From: Escherichia coli
GTDB taxonomy: Bacteria; Pseudomonadota; Gammaproteobacteria; Enterobacterales; Enterobacteriaceae
NCBI RefSeq assembly: GCF_003018235.1
Contig: NZ_CP027437.1
Direction: 5' to 3' (one strand)
Length of the DNA stretch: 64,000 nt
Under the pieces are notes generated by a model. The model saw only the letters and a list, made by a program, of their open reading frames with translations. It was not told the origin of the DNA and did not search any database. Shown piece after piece: positions 13,628-46,337 of this stretch (the stretch's first letter is position 1; each line of letters starts with the position of its first letter). Both the position numbers and the translations under genes were made by a program.

Positions 13628-14815
13628 TTATACAATTCGCGCAAAACCGGCGTCCAGATCGGCAATCAGATCGTCGACATCTTCCAGACCAATATGCAGG
13701 CGAATCAAGGTCCCGCTAAAATCGATCTCGCCTTGCGGGCGAATGGCGGCGATATGTTCTGGTTGATTTGCCAGGATCAACGATTCATAACCGCCCCACG
13801 AGTAGGCCATGCTGAATAAACTGAAGTTATCCAGATAGTTCGCCAGCTCTTCATCATTGAGCTTTTTCTTAAGCACAAAGGAAAATAGCCCGCTGCTACC
13901 TGTAAAGTCTCGTTTCCAGAATTCGTGGCCTTTACTGCCAGGCAGAGCAGGGTGGTTAACTCGCGCTACTTGCGGATGTTCTGCCAGCCATTTGGCCACT
14001 TTCAGACTGCTTTCATGATGTTGACGCAAACGCACACCTAATGTGCGCAGGCCACGGCTGGTTATATAGGCGGTATCGGCATCGACCATCTGGCCCATCA
14101 GGTAGGCATTCTCCCGTAGTTGCTCCCAGCAACGGGCATTGCACACCGCAGTGCCAATCATCGCATCTGAATGCCCAACCAGATATTTGGTGGCGGCCTG
14201 AATAGAAACATCGATGCCAAAATCCAGCGCCTTAAACAGCACACCGGCTGCCCAGGTGTTGTCGATCATAATGATGGCATCCGGCACCACACTGCGTACG
14301 GCGGCAACAATCGCCGGAACGTCGTGGACTTCCATGGTGATGGATCCTGGGGATTCCAGAAATACGATTTTGGTGTTTGGCTGTAGATACTTAACGATAT
14401 CGGCACCAATCAGCGGATCAAACCATGATGTCGTTACGCCCAGTTTGCTGAGGATTTTGCTACAGAAATCCTGGCTCGGTTCGTAGGCGGTATTGGTCAT
14501 CAACACATGATCGCCCTGTTCAACAAAAGCAAGAATGGAATTGGCAACCGCAGCCGCCCCGCAAGGAAACAGCACGCAACCTGCGCCACCTTCCAGTTCG
14601 CACATCGCTTCTTGTAATGAGAAGTGCGTTAGCGTTCCGCGCCGTCCATAGAACAACTCGCCATTGGCGCGATTGCGCGTCGCATGTTTTTTGGCTTCCA
14701 CACTGTCAAAGACCAGCGAAGAGGCGCGCTGAATCACGCTATTTACCGCGCCGAGAGTGTATTTTTTGCTGCGTCCTGCATTGACCAGTTGAGTATCAAG
14801 TTGTTTGTCTGCCAT
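13628..14815 (-). CDS. metC: Cystathionine beta-lyase (PLP-dependent)
   Basis: 395 aa from ATG at 14815 ([15 protein letters not shown]); PLP-enzyme motifs. Confidence 0.9.
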
Positions 14816-14833
14816 GTTGGGATTCCTGTTTTT

Positions 14834-14857
14834 ATACGTCTGGATGTCTAAACTAGC
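14834..14857 (-). promoter_or_regulatory. Putative MetJ operator (tandem met boxes) upstream of metC
   Basis: Minus strand reads agacatcc agacgtat, two tandem 8-mers near the AGACGTCT consensus; metC is known to be MetJ-regulated. Confidence 0.45.
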
Positions 14858-14977
14858 ACGAATGAGGTCATGCGCATCCTGAAGAATTGGCATAAAGCAG
14901 AAAAATTTCGCAAAAGGTGTACTGGTGACTTTTTTACTGCGTAAACGCAAAGAAAAGAAAGCAAAGGTACGGCAGTA

Positions 14978-15006
14978 TGCAAATAGTAATGAGAACGACT
15001 ATCAAT
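14978..15006 (+). promoter_or_regulatory. Possible Fur box in the exbB promoter
   Basis: aaatagtaatgagaacgactatc loosely resembles GATAATGATAATCATTATC; exbBD is known to be Fur-regulated. Confidence 0.3.
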
Positions 15007-15066
15007 TCGACGTCGTTTTGATATTATTGTGCGCAGATTTTGTGACTTGCGTCCTGGAGATACACA

Positions 15067-15801
15067 GTGGGTAATAATTTAATGCAGACGGACCTTTCCG
15101 TCTGGGGTATGTATCAGCACGCCGATATTGTTGTTAAGTGCGTGATGATTGGGCTGATTCTGGCCTCCGTAGTCACCTGGGCAATCTTCTTCAGTAAGAG
15201 CGTAGAGTTCTTCAACCAGAAGCGTCGCCTGAAGCGCGAACAGCAACTTCTGGCTGAAGCACGCTCCTTAAACCAGGCCAATGATATCGCCGCTGATTTT
15301 GGTAGCAAAAGCTTAAGCCTGCATTTGCTCAATGAAGCGCAGAATGAGCTGGAACTGTCAGAAGGCAGCGACGATAACGAAGGTATTAAAGAACGTACCA
15401 GCTTCCGTCTGGAGCGTCGGGTCGCCGCAGTAGGTCGTCAAATGGGCCGCGGTAACGGTTATCTGGCAACCATCGGCGCGATTTCGCCGTTCGTTGGTCT
15501 GTTTGGTACGGTCTGGGGCATCATGAACAGCTTTATTGGTATCGCGCAAACGCAGACCACTAACCTGGCAGTCGTTGCGCCGGGTATTGCAGAAGCTCTG
15601 TTAGCAACGGCAATCGGCCTCGTGGCAGCGATTCCGGCGGTCGTTATCTATAACGTATTTGCACGTCAGATTGGCGGCTTTAAAGCGATGCTGGGTGATG
15701 TCGCAGCGCAGGTATTGTTGCTGCAAAGCCGTGACCTGGATCTGGAAGCCAGCGCCGCTGCGCATCCGGTTCGTGTCGCACAAAAATTACGCGCAGGATA
15801 A
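15067..15801 (+). CDS. exbB: Biopolymer transport protein ExbB (TonB energising complex)
   Basis: 244-aa ORF, GTG start, MotA/TolQ/ExbB family. Confidence 0.9.
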   Translation: MGNNLMQTDLSVWGMYQHADIVVKCVMIGLILASVVTWAIFFSKSVEFFNQKRRLKREQQLLAEARSLNQANDIAADFGSKSLSLHLLNEAQNELELSEGSDDNEGIKERTSFRLERRVAAVGRQMGRGNGYLATIGAISPFVGLFGTVWGIMNSFIGIAQTQTTNLAVVAPGIAEALLATAIGLVAAIPAVVIYNVFARQIGGFKAMLGDVAAQVLLLQSRDLDLEASAAAHPVRVAQKLRAG

Positions 15802-15807
15802 TGTCCG

Positions 15808-16233
15808 ATGGCAATGCATCTTAACGAAAACCTCGACGATAACGGCGAAATGCATGATATCAACGTGACGCCGTTTATCGACGTGATGTTGGTTTTGCTG
15901 ATTATCTTTATGGTGGCGGCACCGTTAGCGACGGTAGATGTGAAGGTGAATTTGCCTGCTTCTACCAGCACGCCGCAGCCGCGCCCGGAAAAACCGGTTT
16001 ATCTGTCGGTGAAAGCAGACAACTCGATGTTTATTGGTAACGATCCGGTCACCGATGAAACAATGATTACGGCGTTGAATGCGTTAACCGAAGGCAAGAA
16101 AGACACCACCATCTTCTTCCGAGCGGACAAAACCGTCGATTACGAGACGTTGATGAAGGTAATGGATACGCTGCATCAGGCGGGTTACCTGAAAATAGGT
16201 CTGGTCGGCGAAGAAACTGCGAAAGCGAAATAA
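15808..16233 (+). CDS. exbD: Biopolymer transport protein ExbD
   Basis: 141-aa ORF immediately downstream of exbB. Confidence 0.9.
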   Translation: MAMHLNENLDDNGEMHDINVTPFIDVMLVLLIIFMVAAPLATVDVKVNLPASTSTPQPRPEKPVYLSVKADNSMFIGNDPVTDETMITALNALTEGKKDTTIFFRADKTVDYETLMKVMDTLHQAGYLKIGLVGEETAKAK

Positions 16234-27655: not shown

Positions 27656-28563
<908 letters not shown>

Positions 28564-33332: not shown

Positions 33333-33342
33333 TCTTCCTGAA

Positions 33343-33370
33343 AATGCCCGGTCCTGGCGATCGGGCATTT
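33343..33370. terminator. Stem-loop between convergent pitB and yghT (aatgcccg-N12-cgggcatt)
   Basis: 8-bp perfect stem followed by tccattttt. Confidence 0.55.
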
Positions 33371-33380
33371 CCATTTTTGA

Positions 33381-34073
33381 CTAGTGATACCCACGCGCGG
33401 TCATAAAATCCGTAATCGCTTTTTCTGCATCAACCAGTACCTTTTCCAGTGGCTGATTGGCGTCGATATCAACCAGTTGTGCACCACCAAAGGTTAACTG
33501 TGGCGTTATGGCTATCTTTCTTGCCAGCGATTCCCTTTTGTGGTCAGGCTTACGCGCGCAGGCCACGTCTAGATCGACATTGAGTTTGATGACCAGATCA
33601 GGTTTATGGCTCGCCATCCAGTGAAACGCTTTACGTTCCTGGCTTGCCAGCCATGAGACAAAACGACCACCTTCAATGTTAGGTGGGAACACTGTACCAT
33701 CGTAAGCGCCAGGAATTTGGTCCTGAGGATAACGGTCGGTTAGAACAATTAACCCGCGACGACGACAGGCAAGCATATGACGAAAGCGCAGTAAGCGACG
33801 GGCGACAAACGCTGTAATTACCAGCGCCGGAACAGGGCCAGGCAATTTTTTTGCTGTTTTCACCTGATTTCGTTCAATTGTTTTATGTAAGGATTTTCCC
33901 ATCAACGGTAATTTTGTCACTGCACGACCGACATTTCCGGCCTGTTTTCCTAAATGAACTCTTTCGGCTGCACCATATTTTTCGACAACGGTAATGAGAT
34001 GTTCACACACCGTTGACTTGCCTGAACCATCGCTACCAATAACGGCAATTAATGGAGGTGTTATTGACTGCAT
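33381..34073 (-). CDS. yghT: P-loop NTPase, kinase-like; paralogue of YghS and YghR
   Basis: 230-aa ORF; Walker [10 protein letters not shown]; shared C-terminal motif RKPDH with YghS/YghR. Confidence 0.8.
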
Positions 34074-34246
34074 GAATATATCCTTTAATTTAAATATCCA
34101 TTAAAAATATTTATTTGGTTAATATGTTTTTATGAAAGCGTAATTCAGGTCAATGTCACAATTAACCATTGTCACAATAAGGTTGAACGGATATTCTGAG
34201 CACGGACCACGTAATATTCAATACATTATTTGCTGCCGGGTTTTTC

Positions 34247-34960
34247 GTGAATCAACGTAATATGTCAATAATTAATTCCACGCCAGTGCGTGTTATTGCC
34301 ATTGTAGGATGTGATGGTTCAGGTAAATCGACCCTCACGGCAAGCCTGGTAAATGAACTGGCAGCAAGAATGCCAACAGAACACATTTATCTCGGGCAAT
34401 CGTCCGGGCGAATTGGCGAATGGATTTCACAGCTCCCTGTTATTGGCGCACCTTTTGGGCGTTATTTGCGAAGTAAAGCGGCACATGTGCACGAAAAGCC
34501 CTCAGCACCGCCTGGCAATATTACTGCGCTGGTTATCTATCTGCTTTCCTGCTGGCGGGCGTACAAGTTTCGCAAAATGTTGTGTAAAAGCCAGCAAGGC
34601 TATCTGCTCATCACCGACCGCTACCCGCAGGTTGAAGTGCCGGGTTTTCGCTTTGATGGCCCGCAATTGGCAAAAACCACGGGCGGTAACGGTTGGATAA
34701 AAATGTTAAGGCAGCGCGAGCTGAAGCTGTACCAATGGATGGCGTCTTATTTGCCCGTATTGTTGATTCGTCTTGGCATTGATGAACAAACCGCGTTTGC
34801 GCGTAAACCTGACCACCAACTGGCAGCGTTACAGGAAAAAATCGCCGTTACGCCGCAACTGACATTCAATGGCGCAAAGATCCTTGAACTGGATGGTCGG
34901 CAACCAGCCGATGAAATTATGCAAGCGTCACTACGCGCAATTCACGCCGCGCTTTCCTGA
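34247..34960 (+). CDS. yghS: P-loop NTPase, kinase-like; paralogue of YghT and YghR
   Basis: 237-aa ORF; Walker A GCDGSGKST. Confidence 0.8.
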   Translation: MNQRNMSIINSTPVRVIAIVGCDGSGKSTLTASLVNELAARMPTEHIYLGQSSGRIGEWISQLPVIGAPFGRYLRSKAAHVHEKPSAPPGNITALVIYLLSCWRAYKFRKMLCKSQQGYLLITDRYPQVEVPGFRFDGPQLAKTTGGNGWIKMLRQRELKLYQWMASYLPVLLIRLGIDEQTAFARKPDHQLAALQEKIAVTPQLTFNGAKILELDGRQPADEIMQASLRAIHAALS

Positions 34961-34991
34961 TCACCAAAATGGATAGGGGATGATTTAACGA

Positions 34992-35748
34992 ATGGATGCA
35001 CTACAAACACAAACTGTTAAGAGTACAACCGCGCCGCAGCCCAACTACATTCCGGGGCTGATTGCGGTGGTCGGGTGTGATGGCACCGGTAAATCCACGC
35101 TGACCACCGACCTGGTGAAATCGCTGCAACAACACTGGCAAACCGAGCGGCGCTATCTGGGGCTGCTCTCCGGCGAAGACGGCGACAAAATCAAACGATT
35201 GCCGTTGGTTGGCGTCTGGCTGGAACGGCGGCTGGCGGCCAAATCCTCGAAAACCCAAAGCATGAAAACCAAATTTCCAGCGCTATGGGCGGCGGTGATT
35301 ATGTACTGCTTCTCGCTGCGAAGAATGGCGAATCTACGCAAGGTTCAGCGACTGGCGCAAAGTGGCGTTCTGGTGGTCAGCGATCGCTTCCCGCAGGCTG
35401 AAATTTCGGGCTTTTATTATGACGGACCGGGGATCGGCGTCGAACGTGCGACCGGGAAAATCAGCATGTTTCTGGCGCAGCGCGAACGGCGTTTATACCA
35501 ACAAATGGCGCTACCGTCCTGAATTAATCATTCGCCTGGGCATTGATATTGATACTGCCATCTCCCGCAAGCCTGACCATGACTATGCCGAGCTGCAGGA
35601 CAAAATCGGCGTCATGTCGACGATTGGCTATAACGGCACAAAAATTCTTGAGATTGATTCCAGAGCGCCTTACAGCGAGGTGCTGGAACAGGCACAGAAG
35701 GCGGTTTCTCTGGTTGCCATCGTTTCTGACCGCCGAAGTTTAACTTAA
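34992..35748 (+). pseudogene. yghR: P-loop NTPase YghR interrupted by a frameshift near 35511 (two ORF pieces, 34992-35522 and frame +1 to 35748)
   Basis: Alignment to YghS/YghT (…LYQWMASYLP… / …FHWMASHKP…) shows the frame changing after QQMA; the repaired product would be 252 aa. Confidence 0.7.
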
Positions 35749-35793: not shown

Positions 35794-37143
35794 TTGGCGG
35801 GTTTTAACATCAAACATTGGTTTGCAGATGGCGCGTTTCGCACCATTATTCGCAATAGCGCCTGGTTAGGCTCCAGTAATGTCGTGAGCGCCTTGCTGGG
35901 TCTGTTGGCGCTCTCGTGTGCCGGTAAAGGGATGACGCCCGCCATGTTTGGCGTACTGGTGATTGTGCAATCGTACGCCAAGTCGATCAGCGATTTTATT
36001 AAGTTTCAGACATGGCAGCTGGTGGTTCAGTACGGAACGCCAGCCTTGACCAACAATAATCCGCAGCAATTTCGCAATGTTGTCTCATTTTCCTTCTCGC
36101 TGGATATCGTCAGCGGCGCGGTGGCGATTGTCGGCGGCATTGCCTTACTGCCATTCCTTTCCCATTCATTAGGTCTGGATGACCAAAGCTTTTGGCTGGC
36201 GGCGCTCTATTGCACGCTCATTCCTTCAATGGCTTCCTCCACGCCGACCGGCATTCTGCGTGCGGTAGATCGCTTTGATTTGATTGCTGTACAGCAGGCG
36301 ACGAAACCTTTTCTGCGCGCAGCGGGGAGCGTCGTAGCCTGGTATTTTGACTTTGGTTTTGCGGGTTTTGTTATTGCCTGGTACGTGTCGAATCTGGTTG
36401 GCGGCACCATGTACTGGTGGTTTGCCGCGCGCGAATTACGCCGCAGAAATATCCATAACACCTTCAAATTGAATCTGTTTGAGTCTGCCCGACACATTAA
36501 AGGCGCGTGGAGTTTTGTCTGGTCAACCAACATTGCCCACTCCATCTGGTCGGCACGTAACTCGTGCAGCACAGTGCTGGTGGGGATCGTGTTAGGACCC
36601 GCTGCCGCCGGGTTATTTAAAATCGCCATGACATTCTTCGACGCCGCCGGAACGCCAGCGGGTTTACTGGGTAAAAGTTTTTACCCAGAGGTGATGCGTT
36701 TAGATCCGCGCACCACCAGACCGTGGTTGTTAGGCGTGAAGTCCGGTTTACTGGCGGGCGGAATCGGTATTCTGGTGGCGCTCGCGGTGTTGATCGTCGG
36801 CAAGCCGCTCATTTCGCTGGTGTTTGGCGTTAAGTATCTCGAAGCGTATGACCTGATTCAGGTGATGCTGGGCGCAATTGTGATTTCGATGCTGGGCTTC
36901 CCACAGGAGTCATTGCTATTGATGGCGGGAAAACAGCGCGCTTTTCTCGTGGCGCAAACCATCGCCTCAATCGGCTACATCGTATTGCTGTTCATGTTCT
37001 GTCATCTGTTTGGCGTGCTGGGGGCTGCATTTGCTTACTTCGCTGGGCAATGTCTGGATGTGGTGTTCTCGCTAATTCCAACCTTAAAGGCATTTTTTCA
37101 GCGCCATTCCTTGCTTTATAACGCAGCCGGAGAGAAATCCTGA
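35794..37143 (+). CDS. yghQ: Multi-pass membrane protein of the MOP/Wzx-like flippase superfamily; start codon uncertain
   Basis: 449-aa ORF (maximal), highly hydrophobic; K-12 annotation is shorter, to my recollection. Confidence 0.7.
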   Translation: MAGFNIKHWFADGAFRTIIRNSAWLGSSNVVSALLGLLALSCAGKGMTPAMFGVLVIVQSYAKSISDFIKFQTWQLVVQYGTPALTNNNPQQFRNVVSFSFSLDIVSGAVAIVGGIALLPFLSHSLGLDDQSFWLAALYCTLIPSMASSTPTGILRAVDRFDLIAVQQATKPFLRAAGSVVAWYFDFGFAGFVIAWYVSNLVGGTMYWWFAARELRRRNIHNTFKLNLFESARHIKGAWSFVWSTNIAHSIWSARNSCSTVLVGIVLGPAAAGLFKIAMTFFDAAGTPAGLLGKSFYPEVMRLDPRTTRPWLLGVKSGLLAGGIGILVALAVLIVGKPLISLVFGVKYLEAYDLIQVMLGAIVISMLGFPQESLLLMAGKQRAFLVAQTIASIGYIVLLFMFCHLFGVLGAAFAYFAGQCLDVVFSLIPTLKAFFQRHSLLYNAAGEKS

Positions 37144-37967
37144 TGATGAGAAAATATTTCCCGCTTGAGGCTAGCGAGCGTCTATTTGTTGCGATTGAAG
37201 AAGATGATGTCGTTGATGCACAGGTCAGTTTGCCGCCGACTATCGCACTAAGTTGTACCACCGAAATCATCCATGATAATTACGCGTTATGCCTGAAATT
37301 CTGGCTGGATGGTGTTAATCGTCAGGAGCTACTGCGTTTAATCCGCAAACAGGCGAAAGGCGATGAGCTGACGACAGACGAGCGCAAAAAGTATAAATAC
37401 ATGCGAGCGCGCTACAAGCATCTGCGCTTTGCGCAACGGCTGTATTTAAAGAAGCATCAGGCCGGATTTTTATTCGGCAAAACGACCGTTTTTTTGGGGC
37501 GTTTTCAGGACGGCTTTCGTAACGGTAAGAAAAATATTGTGTCGTATTACGGCAACCTGTTACGGGTTTATTTAAGCTCTCCGGTCTGGTCGTTGGTGAA
37601 CTATTCATTACGCCATAGCCAGTTAGAAAGCGTAAGCGGTTTTATTGCCTATCGGCAAAAGCAAATGCATACCCTGAAAGAGATAATTGCCAAACCGCGA
37701 CTAACTGGCAGGGAATTTCATGATGTGCGAAAAATCATCAGCCAGCAGGTTTCTTATTACGACACCCTAAGATCGCTTGATCCTGAAAATAAAGAGGCGT
37801 TACAGATTTCCCGCTTCCTCGCCGCCATTAATGGCCTGATGGGGGATAAACACGACGACATGGTGGCGGATGATATGGAAAACCGCCAGTCGTATGATGC
37901 ACCGGTGGCGCTGGATAGCGATATTCGCCAGCGCTTAGAGCTGCTGATTTCGCGTTTTCCGCTATAA
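37143..37967 (+). CDS. Hypothetical protein, 274 aa, no recognisable domain
   Basis: Start overlaps the yghQ stop (TGATG); charged, non-membrane. Confidence 0.55.
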   Translation: MMRKYFPLEASERLFVAIEEDDVVDAQVSLPPTIALSCTTEIIHDNYALCLKFWLDGVNRQELLRLIRKQAKGDELTTDERKKYKYMRARYKHLRFAQRLYLKKHQAGFLFGKTTVFLGRFQDGFRNGKKNIVSYYGNLLRVYLSSPVWSLVNYSLRHSQLESVSGFIAYRQKQMHTLKEIIAKPRLTGREFHDVRKIISQQVSYYDTLRSLDPENKEALQISRFLAAINGLMGDKHDDMVADDMENRQSYDAPVALDSDIRQRLELLISRFPL

Positions 37968-37975
37968 CCGGAGCA

Positions 37976-38539
37976 ATGATGTCATCTCGTTTGATTATTG
38001 CGCTGATTATCATGCTCTTAGCCCCGGGTGTGCAGGCACACAATTTCGTCACTGGCAAAACGGTTACCCCTGTTTATATCCAGGAAGGCGGCGAGCTGCT
38101 TCTGAATAGCGACGACGAAATTCACTACCAAAAGTGGAACAGCACACAGCTGGCGGGAAAAGTTCGCATTATTCAGTATATCGCCGGGCGTAAGTCGGCG
38201 AAGAAAAAGAACTCACTGTTAATTAAAGCGGTTGAAGCGGCAAACTTTCCGCAGGATCGTTTTCAGCCCACCACCATTGTGAACACCGATGATGCCATTT
38301 TTGGTACTGGCTATTTTGTCGTTGGCAAAATCGAAAAAAATAAACGCCGCTATCCGTGGGCGCAATTCGTTATTGACGGCAATGGACAGGGACGCGTTGC
38401 CTGGCGGTTGCCGGAGCAGAGTTCAACCATTCTGGTGCTGAATAAAGCCGGGCAAATTCAGTGGGCAAAGGACGGCAGCCTGACGCCGGAAGAGGTAGAA
38501 CATGTCATTGCGCTGGCGCAGAAACTGATCAATGAATAA
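37976..38539 (+). CDS. YtfJ-family periplasmic protein
   Basis: 187-aa ORF; signal peptide MMSSRLIIALIIMLLAPGVQA; conserved TTIVNTDDAI and WAKDGSLTPEEV blocks recalled from E. coli YtfJ. Confidence 0.55.
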   Translation: MMSSRLIIALIIMLLAPGVQAHNFVTGKTVTPVYIQEGGELLLNSDDEIHYQKWNSTQLAGKVRIIQYIAGRKSAKKKNSLLIKAVEAANFPQDRFQPTTIVNTDDAIFGTGYFVVGKIEKNKRRYPWAQFVIDGNGQGRVAWRLPEQSSTILVLNKAGQIQWAKDGSLTPEEVEHVIALAQKLINE

Positions 38540-38569: not shown

Positions 38570-39640
38570 ATGAAGCTGGTTGAACACTACATCATGCGTG
38601 GTACGCGCCGTCTGGTGCTGATTATCGTCGGTTTTCTGATCTTTATTTTCGCCAGCTACTCCGCACAGCGTTATCTGACCGAAGCGGCAAATGGGACATT
38701 AGCTCTTGATGTTGTGCTGGATATTGTTTTCTACAAGGTGCTGATTGCACTGGAGATGTTGTTACCTGTTGGACTGTATGTGTCAGTTGGCGTGACGCTA
38801 GGGCAGATGTATACCGACTCGGAAATTACCGCTATTTCTGCGGCGGGGGGCAGTCCGGGACGCTTGTACAAAGCCGTTCTTTATCTGGCGATACCGCTAA
38901 GTATTTTTGTCACCCTTCTGTCGATGTATGGTCGTCCGTGGGCTTATGCGCAGATTTATCAACTGGAGCAACAGTCACAGTCGGAGCTGGATGTTCGCCA
39001 GTTGCGGGCAAAGAAATTTAACACTAACGATAACGGACGAATGATCCTTTCGCAGACGGTTGATCAGGATAATAATCGCCTGACTGACGCGCTGATTTAT
39101 ACTTCTACTGCCAATCGAACCCGCATTTTCCGCGCCCGTTCGGTTGATGTGGTTGACCCATCACCTGAGAAACCGACCGTTATGTTGCATAACGGGACCG
39201 CCTATCTTCTCGATCATCAGGGGCGTGACGACAACGAACAGATCTACCGTAATCTGCAATTACATCTGAATCCGCTGGATCAAAGCCCTAACGTCAAACG
39301 CAAAGCAAAATCGGTCACGGAGCTGGCGCGCTCCGCCTTTCCTGCCGATCATGCCGAACTGCAATGGCGACAAAGCCGTGGCCTGACAGCATTGTTGATG
39401 GCGCTGCTGGCCATTTCATTAAGTCGGGTAAAACCGCGGCAAGGGCGATTTTCAACGTTATTGCCACTGACGTTGCTGTTTATTGCCATTTTTTATGGCG
39501 GCGACGTCTGCCGTACGCTGGTGGCTAACGGCGCGATTCCCCTCATTCCTGGTTTGTGGTTAGTACCCGGACTCATGCTAATGGGCCTGCTGATGCTGGT
39601 CGCACGCGACTTCTCATTGCTGCAGAAATTTTCCCGATGA
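38570..39640 (+). CDS. LptF-like permease (YjgP/YjgQ family)
   Basis: 356-aa ORF; N-terminal TM helices, periplasmic beta-jellyroll-like insert, C-terminal TM helices. Confidence 0.65.
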   Translation: MKLVEHYIMRGTRRLVLIIVGFLIFIFASYSAQRYLTEAANGTLALDVVLDIVFYKVLIALEMLLPVGLYVSVGVTLGQMYTDSEITAISAAGGSPGRLYKAVLYLAIPLSIFVTLLSMYGRPWAYAQIYQLEQQSQSELDVRQLRAKKFNTNDNGRMILSQTVDQDNNRLTDALIYTSTANRTRIFRARSVDVVDPSPEKPTVMLHNGTAYLLDHQGRDDNEQIYRNLQLHLNPLDQSPNVKRKAKSVTELARSAFPADHAELQWRQSRGLTALLMALLAISLSRVKPRQGRFSTLLPLTLLFIAIFYGGDVCRTLVANGAIPLIPGLWLVPGLMLMGLLMLVARDFSLLQKFSR

Positions 39641-40716
39641 ATGTTTTCAGTCGCTATTTAATCCGTCATCTCTTTCTCGGTTTTGCCGCCGCCGCAGGGC
39701 TATTGCTGCCGCTTTTTACCACCTTCAACCTGATTAACGAACTGGATGATGTCAGCCCGGGCGGTTATCGCTGGACTCAGGCGGTGCTGGTGGTGCTGAT
39801 GACCTTACCGCGTACACTGGTCGAACTTTCGCCGTTTATCGCATTATTGGGAGGGATTGTTGGCCTGGGGCAGTTATCGAAAAACAGTGAGCTTACCGCC
39901 ATTCGCAGCACGGGGTTTTCTATCTTCCGTATTGCACTAGTGGCGCTGGTTGCCGGGATATTGTGGACTGTTTCGTTAGGCGCGATAGATGAGTGGGTGG
40001 CGTCGCCATTGCAGCAACAGGCGCTGCAAATCAAATCGACTGCCACCGCGTTGGGGGAGGACGATGACATTACCGGCAATATGCTTTGGGCCAGGCGCGG
40101 TAATGAATTTGTGACGGTGAAATCGCTGAACGAGCAGGGCCAGCCTGTGGGCGTGGAGATATTTCATTATCGCGACGATCTCTCGCTCGAATCCTACATT
40201 TTTGCACGCAGTGCCTCCATTGAAGACGACAAAACATGGATCCTGCATGGTGTGAATCATAAAAAATGGTTGAATGGCAAGGAAACGCTGGAAACATCAG
40301 ATAATCTTGCCTGGCAATCGGCCTTCACCAGTATGAATCTTGAAGAGTTATCGATGCCGGGAAATACTTTTTCTGTCCGTCAACTTAATCATTACATCCA
40401 TTATTTGCAGGAAACTGGGCAACCCAGCAGCGAATACCGCCTTGCACTGTGGGAAAAACTGGGACAACCCATCCTGACCCTGGCGATGATTTTGCTGGCT
40501 GTGCCGTTTACCTTTAGTGCCCCGCGTTCGCCTGGGATGGGTAGCCGTCTCGCTGTAGGCGTCATCGTGGGCTTACTTACCTGGATCAGCTATCAAATCA
40601 TGGTCAATCTGGGATTGCTATTTGCGTTGAGCGCACCTGTTACCGCGCTCGGTTTACCGGTAGCGTTTGTGCTGGTGGCGTTGAGCCTGGTGTATTGGTA
40701 TGACAGACAACATTAA
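39637..40716 (+). CDS. LptG-like permease (YjgP/YjgQ family), paired with the upstream gene
   Basis: 359 aa from ATG at 39637 (MNVFSRYLIRHLF), overlapping the upstream stop (ATGA). Confidence 0.65.
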   Translation: MNVFSRYLIRHLFLGFAAAAGLLLPLFTTFNLINELDDVSPGGYRWTQAVLVVLMTLPRTLVELSPFIALLGGIVGLGQLSKNSELTAIRSTGFSIFRIALVALVAGILWTVSLGAIDEWVASPLQQQALQIKSTATALGEDDDITGNMLWARRGNEFVTVKSLNEQGQPVGVEIFHYRDDLSLESYIFARSASIEDDKTWILHGVNHKKWLNGKETLETSDNLAWQSAFTSMNLEELSMPGNTFSVRQLNHYIHYLQETGQPSSEYRLALWEKLGQPILTLAMILLAVPFTFSAPRSPGMGSRLAVGVIVGLLTWISYQIMVNLGLLFALSAPVTALGLPVAFVLVALSLVYWYDRQH

Positions 40717-40746
40717 ACCCGCCGTGGCGCAACACCACAGCGGGCT
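40717..40746. terminator. Hairpin between the convergent permease and lipid-synthesis operons
   Basis: cccgccgtgg-N7-ccacagcggg, 10-bp stem with one mismatch. Confidence 0.4.
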
Positions 40747-40750
40747 CACA

Positions 40751-41923
40751 TTACTGCTTCAGAGTAGCGAACGCTTGAATGATGGCATCAATTTGCTCAC
40801 GACTGTGGGCAGCGTTTACGCTACAGCGCAGCAGCGTGATGCCTGCAGGCGCGGCAGGTGGCAGGATAAGATTCACATAAACGCCCAGCGAAATAAGCTC
40901 GCGCCAGATGCGTAAACCTTCCTCTTTCGAACCGATTATTACTGGCACTACCGGGCTAATATGTGAACTTAACTCATAATCCAGTTTTTGCAGACCGTCA
41001 TACAGATGGTTGGCATTATCCATCAGCTTTTGCCGCAACTCTGGTTGTGAGACAATGGTTCTTAACGACGAGCGCACGGTCGCAATGCAGGACGGAGAAG
41101 GAGAGGCGGTAAAAATATACGGGCGGCTGCCGTAGCGCAACACTTCCATCGCTTCCGAACCGACAGCAAAACCGCCAATCGAGGCCAGGCTTTTACTGAA
41201 GGTACCAACGATAATATCCACATCATCTTCAACGCCAACGGCTTCAGCCAGTCCGCGCCCCGTTGCGCCTAACACGCCAAACGAATGCGCTTCATCGACA
41301 ATCAAATAACCACCGAGACGACGTTTGATATCAACAATTTCCGCCAGCGGCGCAACGTCACCGAGCATACTGTAGATGCCTTCAACGATGATAATCGCCT
41401 CTTTTGCCCGTTCACCGAGGCGAACCATGCGCCGTTCCAGATCTTTAGCATCGTTATGGCGGAAACGAATAATTTCCGCGCCACCGAGAGAACAGGCGTC
41501 ATAAATACTGGCGTGGCTGTCGGCATCCAGTAACACCACGGCGTTATGGTCGGCAAGTGCGCTGATGACGCCTAAATTAGCGGTATAACCGGTTGAAAAA
41601 ACGATAGCGGTAGGGCGATTAAAAAACTCGGCGATCTCTTTCTCTAACGCCAGATGCGGCGCATAACTGCCGTTTGCCATACGAGAACCGGTGGTGCCGG
41701 TGCCTTGGGCCGCTAACGCTGCCTGACCTTCGGCGATGGCATCATGATTAAAGGTTAAACCGAGATAATTATTGGTCCCGGCCAGAATCACTTTTTTATT
41801 GCCGATCCGACCTTCGGTGGCGGAATACACTTCATCAATACAGGTGCCAAACGGTGTTAACCCGTTGTCACTAAATTGCAGTCGCTCGCCAGCAAGGCGC
41901 GCATATTTATCGTATAGCCCCAT
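40751..41923 (-). CDS. PLP-dependent alpha-oxoamine synthase, serine palmitoyltransferase-like
   Basis: 390-aa ORF; PLP-lysine motif GTFSKSLASIGG (SPT-like rather than BioF GTFGKA or Kbl GTLGKA) and DADSHAS histidine motif. Confidence 0.75.
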   Translation of the reverse strand: MGLYDKYARLAGERLQFSDNGLTPFGTCIDEVYSATEGRIGNKKVILAGTNNYLGLTFNHDAIAEGQAALAAQGTGTTGSRMANGSYAPHLALEKEIAEFFNRPTAIVFSTGYTANLGVISALADHNAVVLLDADSHASIYDACSLGGAEIIRFRHNDAKDLERRMVRLGERAKEAIIIVEGIYSMLGDVAPLAEIVDIKRRLGGYLIVDEAHSFGVLGATGRGLAEAVGVEDDVDIIVGTFSKSLASIGGFAVGSEAMEVLRYGSRPYIFTASPSPSCIATVRSSLRTIVSQPELRQKLMDNANHLYDGLQKLDYELSSHISPVVPVIIGSKEEGLRIWRELISLGVYVNLILPPAAPAGITLLRCSVNAAHSREQIDAIIQAFATLKQ

Positions 41924-42171
41924 TATTTATTCTCCAGCCATGGAAGTAGTGTTTCCATTAATTGCGCAGGGGTTTTGACATCCAGCAGAATATTAATAGG
42001 AATGGAAATATCGAATCTGTCTTCCAGCATCATTAAGAGATCCATCACTTTGATCGACTCCAGGCCAAGATCGTTGACGAGATCGCTGTCGGGCTTAATT
42101 TCCACACCGTTTTCGACCAAATCCTGTAAACAGGAAAGGATGTAATCCATTACTATTTCACGATTTACCAT
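41923..42171 (-). CDS. Dedicated acyl carrier protein
   Basis: 82-aa acidic ORF with phosphopantetheine-site-like DLGLESIKVMDL; stop overlaps the downstream start. Confidence 0.7.
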   Translation of the reverse strand: MVNREIVMDYILSCLQDLVENGVEIKPDSDLVNDLGLESIKVMDLLMMLEDRFDISIPINILLDVKTPAQLMETLLPWLENK

Positions 42172-42202: not shown

Positions 42203-43117
42203 TCAAAATAGCCCGTTGCGTAATGCGTGTTCCAGGCTAATCCCGGGAAACCAATTAATATCTTCAGAAATACGGTTATTACTTGCCGACCAGTCGGCAT
42301 GAGTTAATTCACGGATTTTCGAACGAGTCAGCATCGGTTCTTTACCCGCCAGACGGCTCAACGCGGTACTGATATCCGCAAGGCAGGTGAGTAGCGGCAG
42401 AGGAATACCGACCATCCGCACGGAACCGCAACGGGCGTCGGCGGCAAGCTGTCTTACGCGTTGCCAGTCATAGCCTCCGGCGACGCCATCGCATAATTCA
42501 TAGGTTTGCGTCTGTACAGTTTCGGCGCTTAACCACTGACCCACTGCTTGCGCAAAATCGGTGACGTGAAGAAAAGAGAGCTGTGTCTCTGGCGTGCCAA
42601 GTCGTGGCAGCAGGCCGCGCAGCATCCAGTCAAACAGCGGTTTTAACTCTTTATCGCCGGGACCATACACGGCTGTCGGGCGAAAAACGCCCAGCGTAAT
42701 TTCATCAGCCATTGCAGTCAGCCGTTGTTCGGCGACGTGTTTGGAATTTGCGTACCAGGAGAGTTCGGGATGGCGCGCCGCCAGCGAAGAGATAAACAGA
42801 AAACGTTGGCAAAAGCCGCTCTCTTTTGCCGCTTGCATCAGGCGCAGGCTGCCGTCAACGTTACAGCGGGTAAAAATCTCTTCTTTGTGTCCGCGCACTT
42901 GTCCGGCGCAATGGACCACCGCGCTGGCTCCGGCAACCAGTTCGCTAAGCGAATGTGTATCTTCCAGCGAACCGCGCACCCAGATGAGATTATCATTGAC
43001 GTGAGCGCGGGCAGTACGCGTCAATGCGCGAACGTGAAAGCCGCGGGCGAGCAGGTTATCGATAATATATTTACCGATAAACCCGGTAGCGCCCGTCACC
43101 GCGACAGTTTGATTCAT
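42203..43117 (-). CDS. NAD(P)-dependent epimerase/dehydratase-fold reductase (extended SDR)
   Basis: 304-aa ORF; Rossmann motif GATGFIG; catalytic YANSK (YxxxK). Confidence 0.7.
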   Translation of the reverse strand: MNQTVAVTGATGFIGKYIIDNLLARGFHVRALTRTARAHVNDNLIWVRGSLEDTHSLSELVAGASAVVHCAGQVRGHKEEIFTRCNVDGSLRLMQAAKESGFCQRFLFISSLAARHPELSWYANSKHVAEQRLTAMADEITLGVFRPTAVYGPGDKELKPLFDWMLRGLLPRLGTPETQLSFLHVTDFAQAVGQWLSAETVQTQTYELCDGVAGGYDWQRVRQLAADARCGSVRMVGIPLPLLTCLADISTALSRLAGKEPMLTRSKIRELTHADWSASNNRISEDINWFPGISLEHALRNGLF

Positions 43118-44850
43118 GCCAGGGATTCCTGCACATGAAGGCTTGCAGCATAACGTTTTTTCGCTTCCGCACGGGCAGGCTTGCCGGAGGACGTTCGGGG
43201 AATACTGTGGGGCGGCAACAGATCGATAGCCGCTGTTACGCCAAATTCGCTTTGGATCCGTGCTACCAGTGCGTGGATAAGCTGCCCACGACGTTCTTCG
43301 TCGCTGATCCTACACTGGATCTGCAGAATGATTTTTTCCTGGGCGGTAACAAAAGCAATCGCATCGCCAGAATGAATTTCCGGTTCCTGTTCCGCAATAT
43401 ATTCAATATCCTGCGGCCAGATATTACGGCCACGAATAATAATCAGATCTTTAATGCGTCCGGTGACATACAGATAACCGTCCAGCAGATAACCGAGGTC
43501 GCCGGTGTCTAACCAGCCCGTCGCGGCAATCTCGTCTTGTGAAATCTGGTCGCCAAAGTAACCGCTCATCAGGCTAGGGCCGGAGATGCAAATATGGCCT
43601 ACCACACGTTCCGCGACAGGTATACCTGCTTCATTGCGGATTTCAATGCCATGTTCCGGCAACGCTTTACCGCAGTTGACGAAAGTCGATACGGCGCGTG
43701 TTTCAGCATCCGGCGCGACGGCTTTGCCCTGATATTCGAGGATGTCGCGATCCACTTCGTTAACCACAACCCCGGAAGCTTCATCAGAGAAGCTGACAGC
43801 CAGCGCATTTTCTGCCAGTCCGTAGCACGGCATGAAAGTTTTATCGTCAAAGTTGACCTGACGGAAACATTCAGCGAATTGATGGAGTTGTTCTGCGGAG
43901 ATGGGTTCTGCACCAATACCAGCGACGCGCCAGCAGGAAAGATCCAGTTCAGCGAGATCTTTTTCATTCACGCGGCGCTGGCACAATTCATAGCCAAACG
44001 GCGGCGCAACGGAAACGGTGCCGCGATTTTTACTGATCAATTTAAGCCATTGCAGAGGACGCATGGCAAAATCCTGAGTGCGCAAATAATCTACTGAAAG
44101 CTGCGTGGCGACGGGGGGCAGGAGAAAGCCGACCAGTCCCATATCATGGTAGAAAGGCAGCCAGGAGACGCAGCGGTCGCCAGGGCGTAATTTAATGCCA
44201 TCGTGGCTTATAGCACGTAGATTAGCCATCACTTCGCGATGGGTGATAATGACGCCACGGGGAAAACGGGTGCTGCCGGAGGTGTACTGGAGGTAGGCGA
44301 TATCGTTCGGAACTGGACGCTGGAGCGCAACATCGGCTTCCGGTAATGCCTTAAACCAGGCGTGGCTTAAAACATGTAATTCGGGGTTGTTATGCGTAGC
44401 GGCATTGACCAGTGGCAACCACTCATCACCAGTGATAATGGCTGCGGGCTGGCAACTTGCCAGTAAACCCTGCAGTTTGGCGCTCCAGGAATCCCGCTGA
44501 CCGACGCCCATTGGAATCGCCAACGGGACGGCGACTAAGCCGGCATACTGGCAGGAAAAAAAAGCCTCTACGAACCCGCTACTGGTTTCGGCAATCAGCG
44601 CCACGCGATCGCCTTTTTTCAGGTTCAGCGATAACAACCGCTTCGCACCAGCTTCGGCACGCGCTTTTAACGTCTGATATTCCAGTTGATCTTCAAGTTG
44701 GCAACGTCTGTCATAAAAATTCATTCCGGCGCTACTCAGAGCGGCGTAGTCCAAAGCATCAACCAGCGTTGGAAAATCGGCATAGCGCATAGGTAGGGAA
44801 TGCGTAAAGATTTTATTAGACATATACACCACGAAAAAATTGGATATCAA
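43114..44850 (-). CDS. Adenylate-forming acyl-AMP ligase / acyl-ACP synthetase-like enzyme; start uncertain
   Basis: 578-aa ORF; AMP-binding motif YTSGSTRFPRG; 4-nt overlap with the downstream reductase gene. Confidence 0.7.
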   Translation of the reverse strand: MISNFFVVYMSNKIFTHSLPMRYADFPTLVDALDYAALSSAGMNFYDRRCQLEDQLEYQTLKARAEAGAKRLLSLNLKKGDRVALIAETSSGFVEAFFSCQYAGLVAVPLAIPMGVGQRDSWSAKLQGLLASCQPAAIITGDEWLPLVNAATHNNPELHVLSHAWFKALPEADVALQRPVPNDIAYLQYTSGSTRFPRGVIITHREVMANLRAISHDGIKLRPGDRCVSWLPFYHDMGLVGFLLPPVATQLSVDYLRTQDFAMRPLQWLKLISKNRGTVSVAPPFGYELCQRRVNEKDLAELDLSCWRVAGIGAEPISAEQLHQFAECFRQVNFDDKTFMPCYGLAENALAVSFSDEASGVVVNEVDRDILEYQGKAVAPDAETRAVSTFVNCGKALPEHGIEIRNEAGIPVAERVVGHICISGPSLMSGYFGDQISQDEIAATGWLDTGDLGYLLDGYLYVTGRIKDLIIIRGRNIWPQDIEYIAEQEPEIHSGDAIAFVTAQEKIILQIQCRISDEERRGQLIHALVARIQSEFGVTAAIDLLPPHSIPRTSSGKPARAEAKKRYAASLHVQESLA

Positions 44851-45194: not shown

Positions 45195-46337
45195 ATGGAA
45201 TGCGATCTGCTGATGATTAAAATTGAAAAAGTAATTAATAAAAATGACCTTAAGGCATTTATCGCTTTTCCGTCATCACTTTATCCCGACGATCCAAACT
45301 GGATACCCCCTTTATTCATTGAACGCAACGAGCATTTGTCTGCGAAAAATCCGGGGACGGACCATATCATCTGGCAGGCGTGGGTGGCAAAAAAAGCCGG
45401 GCAGATAGTTGGGCGAATTACCGCGCAAATCGATACCTTGCACCGTGAGCGTTACGGTGAAGATACCGGTCATTTCGGCATGATTGACGCCATTGATGAT
45501 CCGCAGGTTTTTGCCGCGTTGTTTGGCGCAGCGGAAGCGTGGTTGAAGTCACAAGGAGCAAGTAAGATCAGCGGGCCTTTCAGCCTGAATATCAATCAGG
45601 AAAGCGGATTACTGATTGAAGGTTTCGATACACCACCCTGTGCGATGATGCCGCACGGTAAACCGTGGTATGCCGCGCATATTGAACAATTGGGTTATCA
45701 CAAAGGCATTGATTTACTGGCGTGGTGGATGCAGCGAACCGATCTCACTTTCTCTCCGGCGCTAAAAAAACTGATGGATCAGGTGCGTAAGAAGGTGACC
45801 ATTCGCTGCATCAATCGCCAGCGGTTTGCCGAAGAGATGCAGATCCTGCGTGAGATTTTCAACTCTGGCTGGCAGCACAACTGGGGATTTGTGCCGTTTA
45901 CCGAACATGAATTCGCGACCATGGGCGATCAACTTAAATATCTGGTGCCGGACGATATGATCTACATCGCTGAGATTGATTCTGCACCCTGCGCGTTTAT
46001 TGTCGGCTTGCCAAACATCAACGAGGCGATTGCCGATCTGAACGGATCGCTCTTTCCCTTCGGCTGGGCAAAATTGCTGTGGCGTTTAAAAGTCAGCGGT
46101 GTGCGAACTGCGCGAGTACCGCTGATGGGCGTGCGGGACGAGTATCAGTTTAGCCGCATCGGCCCGGTGATTGCGCTGTTATTGATTGAAGCCTTACGCG
46201 ATCCGTTTGCCCGCCGGAAGATCGATGCGCTGGAAATGTCATGGATCCTCGAAACCAATACAGGCATGAATAACATGCTGGAACGCATTGGGGCGGAGCC
46301 GTACAAGCGTTACCGATTGTATGAAAAGCAGATTTAA
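45195..46337 (+). CDS. yghO: GNAT-fold acyltransferase-like protein, intact
   Basis: 380-aa ORF, divergent from the lipid operon across an AT-rich region; GNAT assignment is from recollection of this family, not a motif scan. Confidence 0.6.
   Translation: MECDLLMIKIEKVINKNDLKAFIAFPSSLYPDDPNWIPPLFIERNEHLSAKNPGTDHIIWQAWVAKKAGQIVGRITAQIDTLHRERYGEDTGHFGMIDAIDDPQVFAALFGAAEAWLKSQGASKISGPFSLNINQESGLLIEGFDTPPCAMMPHGKPWYAAHIEQLGYHKGIDLLAWWMQRTDLTFSPALKKLMDQVRKKVTIRCINRQRFAEEMQILREIFNSGWQHNWGFVPFTEHEFATMGDQLKYLVPDDMIYIAEIDSAPCAFIVGLPNINEAIADLNGSLFPFGWAKLLWRLKVSGVRTARVPLMGVRDEYQFSRIGPVIALLLIEALRDPFARRKIDALEMSWILETNTGMNNMLERIGAEPYKRYRLYEKQI

Follow-up and report, generated by a model that had tools for sequence, protein, structure and literature searches.

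Three paralogous kinases of thymidylate-kinase fold beside the Escherichia coli ceramide island are candidate head-group kinases of a sphingolipid pathway

The yghT, yghS and yghR genes of Escherichia coli lie side by side (positions 33,381 to 35,748) in the 64,000-nucleotide stretch of chromosome analysed here (NCBI RefSeq assembly GCF_003018235.1, contig NZ_CP027437.1; hereafter the window), next to an island of genes for ceramide synthesis and lipid export. We find that their products are, almost certainly, kinases with the fold of thymidylate kinase (TMK), and that the trio is very probably part of the sphingolipid pathway that the island encodes. The reading that we favour, which we judge to be just on the probable side, is that YghT, YghS and YghR are cytoplasmic kinases that phosphorylate the head group of ceramide before the lipid is flipped and exported; the lipid acceptor, the order of the steps and the product are the parts of this reading that we infer. 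Such an assignment gives three long-standing y-genes a concrete role.

The three proteins share the fold of thymidylate kinase

Judged by sequence, YghT, YghS and YghR are paralogous far above chance, as an earlier sequence-only reading of this DNA had proposed for these adjacent genes: over ~218 residues, YghT is 36% identical to YghS (159 bits) and 34% identical to YghR (146 bits), and YghS and YghR share 44% identity (182 bits). Common to all three are GxDGxGKST, DR(Y/F)PQ and RKPDH. The motifs listed in the earlier reading hold in part. Its Walker A pattern, G(C/S)DGSGKST, describes YghT and YghS, but YghR has GCDGTGKST, so the pattern overall is G(C/S)DG(S/T)GKST; from its C-terminal block, RKPDH is found in all three proteins, but 'WMAS' and 'PQLTF' belong to YghT and YghS only, YghR having QKMAQY and STIGY at these places.

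We used 48 diverse homologues to build an AlphaFold2 model of YghS, which gave a predicted local distance difference test (pLDDT) score of 91.8 and a predicted template-modelling (pTM) score of 0.87. The model contains the elements of the P-loop nucleoside monophosphate/nucleoside kinase fold, namely a core of five-stranded parallel sheet, a P-loop, an acceptor-binding helical region and a LID, together with a structural match to known members, of which TMK was the best. A profile of the same 48 sequences, compared with the sequences of the PDB, matched TMKs at E-values of 1.4e-11 to 3e-9, and the resulting alignment pairs the P-loop, the arginine of the 'LLFSANR' helix (YghS R104), the DRY motif (D124-R125-Y126) and the LID (R186). 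The TMK motifs present are the acidic residue of the P-loop (D23), the 'SANR' arginine (R104) and DR(Y/H) (D124-R125-Y126); all residue equivalences to TMK given here come from profile alignments and not from superposition. The nucleotide-kinase-like fold suggested earlier was to be checked by hidden Markov models or structure prediction, and a kinase fold is what was found, so that the proteins are not a non-kinase type of nucleoside triphosphatase.

Another way to view the trio is as true dTMP or nucleotide kinases, or as a nucleotide-based defence or salvage system, merely adjoining the lipid island. RefSeq/PGAP does name YghS and YghT 'dTMP kinase' (and likewise the entry at 14382-15961 of locus L001), bacterial TMKs have a P-loop nearly identical to the GxDGSGKST seen here, and no structural match was better than that to TMK. 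The scores of the three proteins against the curated families, however, all fall below the cut-offs: 20, 19.2 and 26 bits for PF02223 (cut-off 27), 24.4, 24.7 and 31.1 bits for TIGR00041 (cut-off 83.25), and 24.3, 17.6 and 20.3 bits for NF005923 (cut-off 193), with only P-loop noise among Pfam and NCBIfam beyond these sub-threshold matches. The residue that would correspond to the thymine-stacking phenylalanine of Plasmodium falciparum TMK is a leucine (YghS L100). Further differences from Tmk are ~40 extra residues in the acceptor-binding region, an additional set of residues invariant in the trio (P127, Q128, D137, E158, K187, D189, H190 and K198), and the occurrence of three paralogues in a lipid cluster, whereas Tmk is encoded by one housekeeping gene, the separate and essential tmk of E. 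coli. The lipid-gene neighbourhood is, moreover, conserved in four proteobacterial classes (see below), and no PADLOC defence model was matched past the P-loop. We regard this explanation as very improbable. Taken together, the scores below cut-off and the alignment of the profile with TMK place the three proteins as predicted distant members of the TMK superfamily, not dTMP-kinase equivalogues, and the name 'dTMP kinase' looks like an over-annotation, apparently systematic over thousands of genomes, which the present assignment corrects.

Several other assignments were considered and set aside. The search of PADLOC-DB gave only P-loop-length matches, at E-values of 2e-4 or weaker, and a role in anti-phage defence was rejected. 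YghT, YghS and YghR have no Pfam match to the PPK2 domain, similarity to PPK2 being weaker than that to TMK, and none to DAGK_cat (the GGDG-motif type). We do not claim position 51 as the equivalent of the arginine of the TMK 'REP' motif, as two profile alignments place it one residue apart.

The trio is conserved together with sphingolipid genes

We scanned a genome collection by P-loop pattern, finding 316 loci with a relative of the trio, and fetched 79 of these with flanks of up to 10 kb. The 79 come from the best 80 of the 316 matches (the top-scoring quarter) and are biased towards YghS-like sequences. Neighbour families were obtained free of annotation, by clustering 1,559 open reading frames (ORFs) all against all; the ORF caller dropped some genes in GC-rich loci (e.g. 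L052), so that the cluster counts below are lower bounds.

The loci are spread over Gammaproteobacteria (Enterobacterales including Escherichia, Serratia, Pantoea, Erwinia, Hafnia, Citrobacter, Rahnella and others; Carnimonas; and the Xanthomonadales Rhodanobacter and Luteibacter), Betaproteobacteria (Nitrotoga, Gallionellaceae, Sulfuritalea, Methylotenera and Rhodocyclaceae) and Alphaproteobacteria (Sphingobium, Sphingopyxis, Novosphingobium and Acetobacter), with further loci in Myxococcales, other Deltaproteobacteria and one metagenome-assembled genome of Planctomycetota. Searching them by tblastn with the E. coli proteins recovered the S-R tandem nearly everywhere, with T adjoining. After the trio itself the top neighbour family was that of the flippase-like YghQ, in 56 of the 79 loci, followed by a 274-residue CHAD-like protein (51), Spt (48), CerR (46), AasR (41), AcpR (39), LptF2 (35), LptG2 (34), YtfJ (34, essentially in Enterobacterales) and bCerS (26). 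Where both 10-kb flanks were complete (50 loci), spt was present in 38 and one or more island genes in 47. Thus, genes of the island are the commonest neighbours of the trio in four proteobacterial classes, and the lack of co-conservation that the earlier reading had named as a refutation is not what is seen. The accompanying suggestion of lipid or small-molecule kinases is supported as well, and can be sharpened to ceramide-pathway head-group kinases of putative substrate.

The arrangement of the genes varies between taxa. The trio is internal to the cluster of Serratia proteamaculans, which reads bcerS, aasR, cerR, acpR, spt, T, S, R, yghQ, and in Carnimonas a rearranged but complete set has the trio within it. 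Sphingomonads and Acetobacter have S-R-T with YghQ at 54-57% identity and spt more than 10 kb away, which fits the scattered sphingolipid genes described for Sphingomonadales (PMC11324152); in Sphingobium and Sphingopyxis the 274-residue protein also adjoins the trio, at 44% identity. Within the species, the region of the trio is found in 5,082 of 5,426 complete E. coli genomes, and the full island for ceramide synthesis and export in about three quarters of them (4,131 of 5,426, the count for spt). Strains such as BL21(DE3), ATCC 25922 and VCSW5 have the island intact.

Catalytic residues are kept in all three subfamilies

Orthologue sets from the 79 loci (70 S, 63 T and 66 R) were used to examine conservation within each subfamily. 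Conserved at 85% or above in every subfamily, and most of them at 97-100%, are G21, D23, G24, G26, K27, S28, T29, R104, D124, R125 and P127, and likewise Q128, D137, G138, E158, R186, K187, P188, D189, H190 and K198. K27, D124 and R186 each reach at least 97% in the S, T and R subfamilies, and the 48 diverse homologues all have R186, while at least 90% of them have K27 and D124. We had considered whether one paralogue might be a degenerate pseudokinase, an idea rejected by the retention of every catalytic residue in all three subfamilies. Other positions are specific to the subfamilies, given here in the order S/T/R: position 48 is Y/H/Y, 51 is Q/K/L, 134 is F/gap/F and 162 is Y/F/Y. In our best explanation, YghT, YghS and YghR would all be catalytically competent, soluble, ATP-dependent phosphotransferases, non-redundant with one another and not enzymes of nucleotide metabolism. 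The triplication had taken place before the module spread among the Proteobacteria. Metagenomic sequences also contain natural fusions, with S-like and R-like domains joined in P0121 (492 residues) and a T-like domain joined to a second domain in P0124, and such single polypeptides suggest that the members of the trio work together physically.

The same residues bear on the possibility that the trio are ATPase or regulatory subunits, which energise or gate flipping by YghQ or extraction by LptF2G2, or which sense nucleotides for the control of sphingolipid synthesis. Transport ATPases are commonly P-loop proteins, the island has no LptB paralogue, and one distant relative, P0215 (978 residues, with a weak NTP_transf_5 match), is fused to a Wzx-like flippase. 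Yet in its fold, its DRY motif and its LID arginine the trio is of phosphotransferase type, and no ABC signature was found: the matches to ABC_tran (PF00005), for which the cut-off is 25 bits, score 15.5 and 17.8 and cover residues 8-41, the P-loop only. An LptB-like role in particular was rejected on this ground and because Caulobacter LptF2G2, which is required for sphingolipid transport, binds and uses the housekeeping LptB (bioRxiv 10.64898/2026.04.12.717747). Wzx-type flippases, for their part, are not known to be driven by ATP. An ATPase or regulatory role is, in our estimation, improbable.

A proposed route to a phosphorylated ceramide head group

In E. coli B/BL21, Spt, AcpR and AasR make 3-oxosphinganine, and yghO has been named as the aca/bCerS orthologue of CC_1154 (PMC9386255). 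In the route that we propose, dihydroceramide would be synthesised on the cytoplasmic side of the inner membrane by AasR, AcpR, Spt, CerR and YghO (bCerS). The three kinases would then carry out three non-redundant phosphoryl transfers, to the ceramide hydroxyls and/or to phosphate already attached, giving an anionic, phosphate-based lipid head group. The CHAD-fold protein would bind this polyanionic head group, or a precursor of it. Flipping of the product would then fall to the Wzx-like YghQ, and its extraction in the direction of the outer membrane to LptF2G2 together with LptB. By annotation and Pfam, the E. coli island bounded by pitB and glcC contains no glycosyltransferase, nucleotidyltransferase, CDP-alcohol transferase or DAGK-type kinase, and no homologue of CpgA, CpgB, CpgC or CpgD. 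With no other head-group enzyme in the island, phosphorylation would therefore be the only head-group chemistry that it encodes. We also count in favour of this reading the accessory genes of other taxa described below, and the distant relatives in which the domain is fused to a Wzx-like flippase (P0215) or, in P0255 (669 residues), to a GT4 glycosyltransferase.

A P-loop kinase acting in this way would have a precedent in LpxK, the lipid A 4'-kinase, whose membrane-lipid substrate is phosphorylated on the cytoplasmic side and only then flipped and exported by Lpt. The closest comparison in a sphingolipid pathway is with Caulobacter, in which the head group is built by CpgB, CpgC, CpgA, CpgD and others (PMC10331486, PMC11324152, PMC12275187), CpgA-D being the known way from ceramide to an anionic sphingolipid of the outer membrane. 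Like the trio, CpgB (CCNA_01218/CC_1160) is a soluble kinase that depends on ATP and is encoded among sphingolipid genes, and it starts head-group synthesis (PMC10331486, PMC11324152), which is the same logical place in the pathway. It is, however, a ceramide kinase of the DAGK_cat/sphingosine-kinase type with a GGDG motif (PMC10331486), whereas YghR, YghS and YghT are P-loop kinases, so that homology with CpgB was rejected and any role in common would have arisen by convergence. None of the Caulobacter head-group enzymes named above is a P-loop kinase, nor does the literature searched describe one for the CC_1152-CC_1168 cluster. The parsimonious reading, with head-group phosphorylation by the trio, would make YghT, YghS and YghR functional, non-homologous counterparts of CpgB. 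If the head-group assignment is true, the enterobacterial cluster yields a phosphosphingolipid of another kind, reached convergently by way of P-loop kinases.

A different use of the same enzymes would be to phosphorylate a soluble head-group precursor or a nucleotide, which is later joined to ceramide by an enzyme from elsewhere or one that we did not recognise. The nearest known structures all take soluble nucleotide or nucleoside acceptors, and YghT, YghS and YghR have no obvious membrane anchor. Many distant relatives of ~500 residues (P0164, P0169, P0173 and others) carry the YghRST-like domain C-terminal to a nucleotidyltransferase-like domain (DLDLLV motif), an arrangement that recalls kinase and nucleotidyltransferase pairs of head-group activation. 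In Caulobacter the head group is reported to be drawn from CDP-activated phosphoglycerate made by CpgD (PMC12275187). Against this, the clusters of E. coli, Serratia and Carnimonas have no nucleotidyltransferase or transferase able to attach such a precursor, no family of attaching enzymes recurs among the neighbours in the 79 loci, around which neither a glycosyltransferase, nor a nucleotidyltransferase, nor a CDP-alcohol transferase is recurrent, and it would be unusual for a single soluble precursor to have three kinases of its own. We consider a soluble substrate unlikely, while giving it a real share of the probability.

The lack of a membrane anchor and the soluble acceptors of the nearest structures count at the same time against phosphorylation of the ceramide head group by the trio, and several further observations weigh on that side. 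In 12 of the 50 loci with full flanks, spt is absent within 10 kb. About 950 E. coli genomes, including those of K-12 type, keep the kinases although the ceramide genes (as represented by spt) have been lost, and therefore retention of the trio within E. coli is not strictly tied to spt and the coupling is looser. Knock-outs of yghR, yghS and yghT in K-12 had no effect in a silkworm virulence screen, though K-12 is without the rest of the island. The literature searched contained no study of the function of YghR, YghS or YghT, only listings of regulons and screens. Lastly, DgkA-like or CpgB-like kinases are found in some of the clusters, where the trio may not itself phosphorylate ceramide.

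These additional kinases are of two kinds. A DgkA-type (DAGK_prokar) kinase is encoded in or next to the cluster in 14 loci, including those of Serratia, Carnimonas, Rosenbergiella and others (examples are L002 2194-2553, L003 12359-12730 and L042 11540-11896). E. coli DgkA phosphorylates ceramide in vitro, and the DgkA-type genes of the clusters may be dedicated copies. A DAGK_cat gene of CpgB/sphingosine-kinase type lies directly upstream of yghS in L018 (8816-9874), L053 and L075, showing that the CpgB type and the trio can coexist. This coexistence of P-loop and DAGK-type kinases argues that the trio is no simple replacement for a ceramide kinase.

Neighbouring proteins and a possible stepwise phosphate chain

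The 274-residue protein encoded beside yghQ has a two-fold, four-helix-bundle CHAD architecture with conserved basic and histidine residues and invariant His/Arg/Lys motifs. It gave no Pfam match even at E-values up to 10 and was missed by the PDB sequence search as well; among its orthologues in UniRef, one already bears the name of a CHAD protein. Domains of the CHAD type bind polyphosphate specifically, tripolyphosphate included (PMC6537752). The known members bind inorganic polyphosphate (PMC6537752), whereas the neighbour of the trio is encoded in a sphingolipid cluster, is missed by Pfam and is not fused to a CYTH/TTM domain. We found no link between CHAD proteins and sphingolipid clusters in the literature searched.

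Accessory genes that recur beside the trio encode types of enzyme that modify lipid phosphates or acyl chains. Two families of PAP2 lipid phosphatases occur in 14 and 8 loci, an LpxO-like hydroxylase in 16, and a PEMT/ICMT-like methyltransferase in 11, often between yghT and yghS, and an LptA-like protein recurs next to the trio in other taxa. The PAP2, PEMT/ICMT-like, LpxO-like and LptA-like genes (L049 795-2195, L075 8491-9258, L045 11533-12288 and L065 12859-13392) are spread over beta-, gamma- and deltaproteobacterial loci. Enzymes of these types also act on lipid A, at its phosphates and its acyl chains.

Together, these neighbours raise a more specific version of the head-group reading, in which the trio extends ceramide-1-phosphate stepwise to a pyro-, tri- or oligophosphate, as TMK puts phosphate on phosphate. 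A first kinase, either a member of the trio or one of DgkA, YegS or CpgB type where present, would make ceramide-1-phosphate; the CHAD-fold protein would hold the growing oligophosphate chain, YghQ would flip the lipid and LptF2G2 would export it. Consistent with such a chain, what would be the two acceptor-phosphate arginines of TMK are invariant in the trio (R104 and R125); three non-redundant kinases stand against only two ceramide hydroxyls; the CHAD-fold partner, so frequent among the 79 loci, is of a domain type that binds tripolyphosphate and longer chains; and related clusters contain PAP2 phosphatases, the PEMT/ICMT-like methyltransferase and separate DgkA or DAGK_cat kinases. We put the stepwise chain forward as a speculative proposal of rather low probability. 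If it is true, there would be a new class of highly anionic, lipid-A-like outer-membrane sphingolipids in E. coli and many Proteobacteria.

Whichever phosphates are added, the five-gene core of T, S, R, YghQ and the CHAD-like protein provides a means of finding such lipids in sphingomonads, Acetobacter, nitrifiers and uncultured Proteobacteria. The anionic sphingolipids of Caulobacter can in part replace lipid A and determine sensitivity to polymyxin, and therefore the product of the enterobacterial cluster may bear on envelope biology and antibiotic response in Enterobacterales.

Layout of the locus and the yghR frameshift

The source chromosome is of E. coli type, a 3.2-kb stretch being 98.8-99.2% identical to E. 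coli genomes. Along the window the order is yghU, gss, pitB, yghT, an AT-rich gap of 173 bp, yghS, yghR and yghQ, followed on the same strand 3' of yghR by the genes listed in Table 1 as far as lptG2; spt, acpR, cerR and aasR are convergent to this run, and yghO forms the end of the island. The coordinates agree with the earlier placing of yghS and yghR directly upstream of yghQ on the same strand, with yghT divergent.

Table 1. Features of the kinase and ceramide locus in the window (positions are those of the window)
Feature	Position	Strand	Description
GC-rich hairpin	33342..33370		Between the convergent 3' ends of pitB and yghT; 12-bp stem then T-run; consensus scan only
yghT	33381..34073	-	TMK-fold P-loop kinase, 'T' subfamily; 230 residues, intact; RKPDH present
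yghT/yghS divergent intergenic region	34074..34246		AT-rich; presumed shared promoter region
yghS	34247..34960	+	TMK-fold P-loop kinase, 'S' subfamily; 237 residues, intact
yghR	34992..35748	+	TMK-fold P-loop kinase, 'R' subfamily; pseudogene or sequencing error in the window
yghQ	35794..37143	+	Wzx/MOP-type flippase-like membrane protein; Pfam Polysacc_synt 43 bits, Polysacc_synt_3 32 bits
274-residue 'hypothetical protein'	37143..37967	+	CHAD (polyphosphate-binding) fold
YtfJ-family periplasmic protein	37976..38539	+	Pfam YtfJ_HI0045, 201 bits
lptF2	38570..39640	+	LptF paralogue, sphingolipid export permease; Pfam LptF_LptG, 184 bits
lptG2	39637..40716	+	LptG paralogue; ORF from internal ATG matching RefSeq annotation
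Strong hairpin	40714..40748		Between convergent lptG2 and spt; 16-bp stem with 9 GC pairs
spt	40751..41923	-	Serine palmitoyltransferase; Pfam Aminotran_1_2; RefSeq name spt
acpR	41923..42171	-	Specialised acyl carrier protein; ORF, annotation, PMC9386255
cerR/epi	42203..43117	-	Ketosphinganine (ceramide) reductase candidate; intact 304-residue ORF; annotated NAD-dependent epimerase; PMC9386255
aasR	43114..44850	-	Acyl-AcpR synthetase; intact ORF; annotated fatty acyl-AMP ligase; PMC9386255
yghO	45195..46337	+	Bacterial ceramide synthase (bCerS/aca) homologue; intact 380-residue ORF

From yghS to lptG2 the genes share one strand, separated at first by 31 and 45 bp and overlapping further on, and no strong hairpin precedes that at 40714; this operon-like run without a strong terminator, a matter of architecture only, was counted in favour of the link between the kinases and the lipid island. 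Promoters and terminators were scanned for by matches to consensus, which were not above the expectation from shuffled sequence, and only the two strong hairpins were relied on. Both are likely, by their predicted structure, to be bidirectional terminators that delimit the yghT unit and the yghS...lptG2 unit, that at 40714-40748 likely marking the end of the yghS...lptG2 transcript. A single sigma-70-like match (34169-34197, plus strand) lies in the gap between yghT and yghS and is not above chance expectation, and an Rfam search for an RNA element or riboswitch around the kinase genes gave no match at E-values up to 1. In K-12, a peak for FlhDC has been found between yghS and yghT by genomic systematic evolution of ligands by exponential enrichment (gSELEX; PMC9962212), and over-expression of SlyA raised yghS 3.1-fold; under laboratory conditions expression of the locus may be low.

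The earlier description of three genes for proteins of 230-250 residues holds for yghT and yghS, but yghR is frameshifted in the window, which had gone unnoticed. A 2-bp deletion after 35511 ends the frame at codon 176, before RKPDH, so that the gene is broken into ORFs at 34992-35522 (176 residues, ending ...QQMALPS*) and 35362-35748. The intact product in strain VCSW5 has 252 residues, and putting the two bases back gives a YghR of the same length with 4 differences from that of VCSW5; YghT of the window is 1 residue away from its VCSW5 counterpart. The deletion is present in 0 of the 5,426 complete E. coli genomes, whose closest match across the 91-bp junction reaches 95.7% identity, and we therefore take the frameshift to be either a strain-specific, very recent decay or a sequencing error. 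If it is real, the pathway would be without YghR in this strain. All island genes other than yghR are intact in the window.

At the far side of the locus, an IS3-family transposase ORF (240 residues, 27809-28531) lies just upstream of yghU, and the annotation of some human E. coli isolates shows this junction of IS3 transposase and yghU too, at ~96.5% identity.

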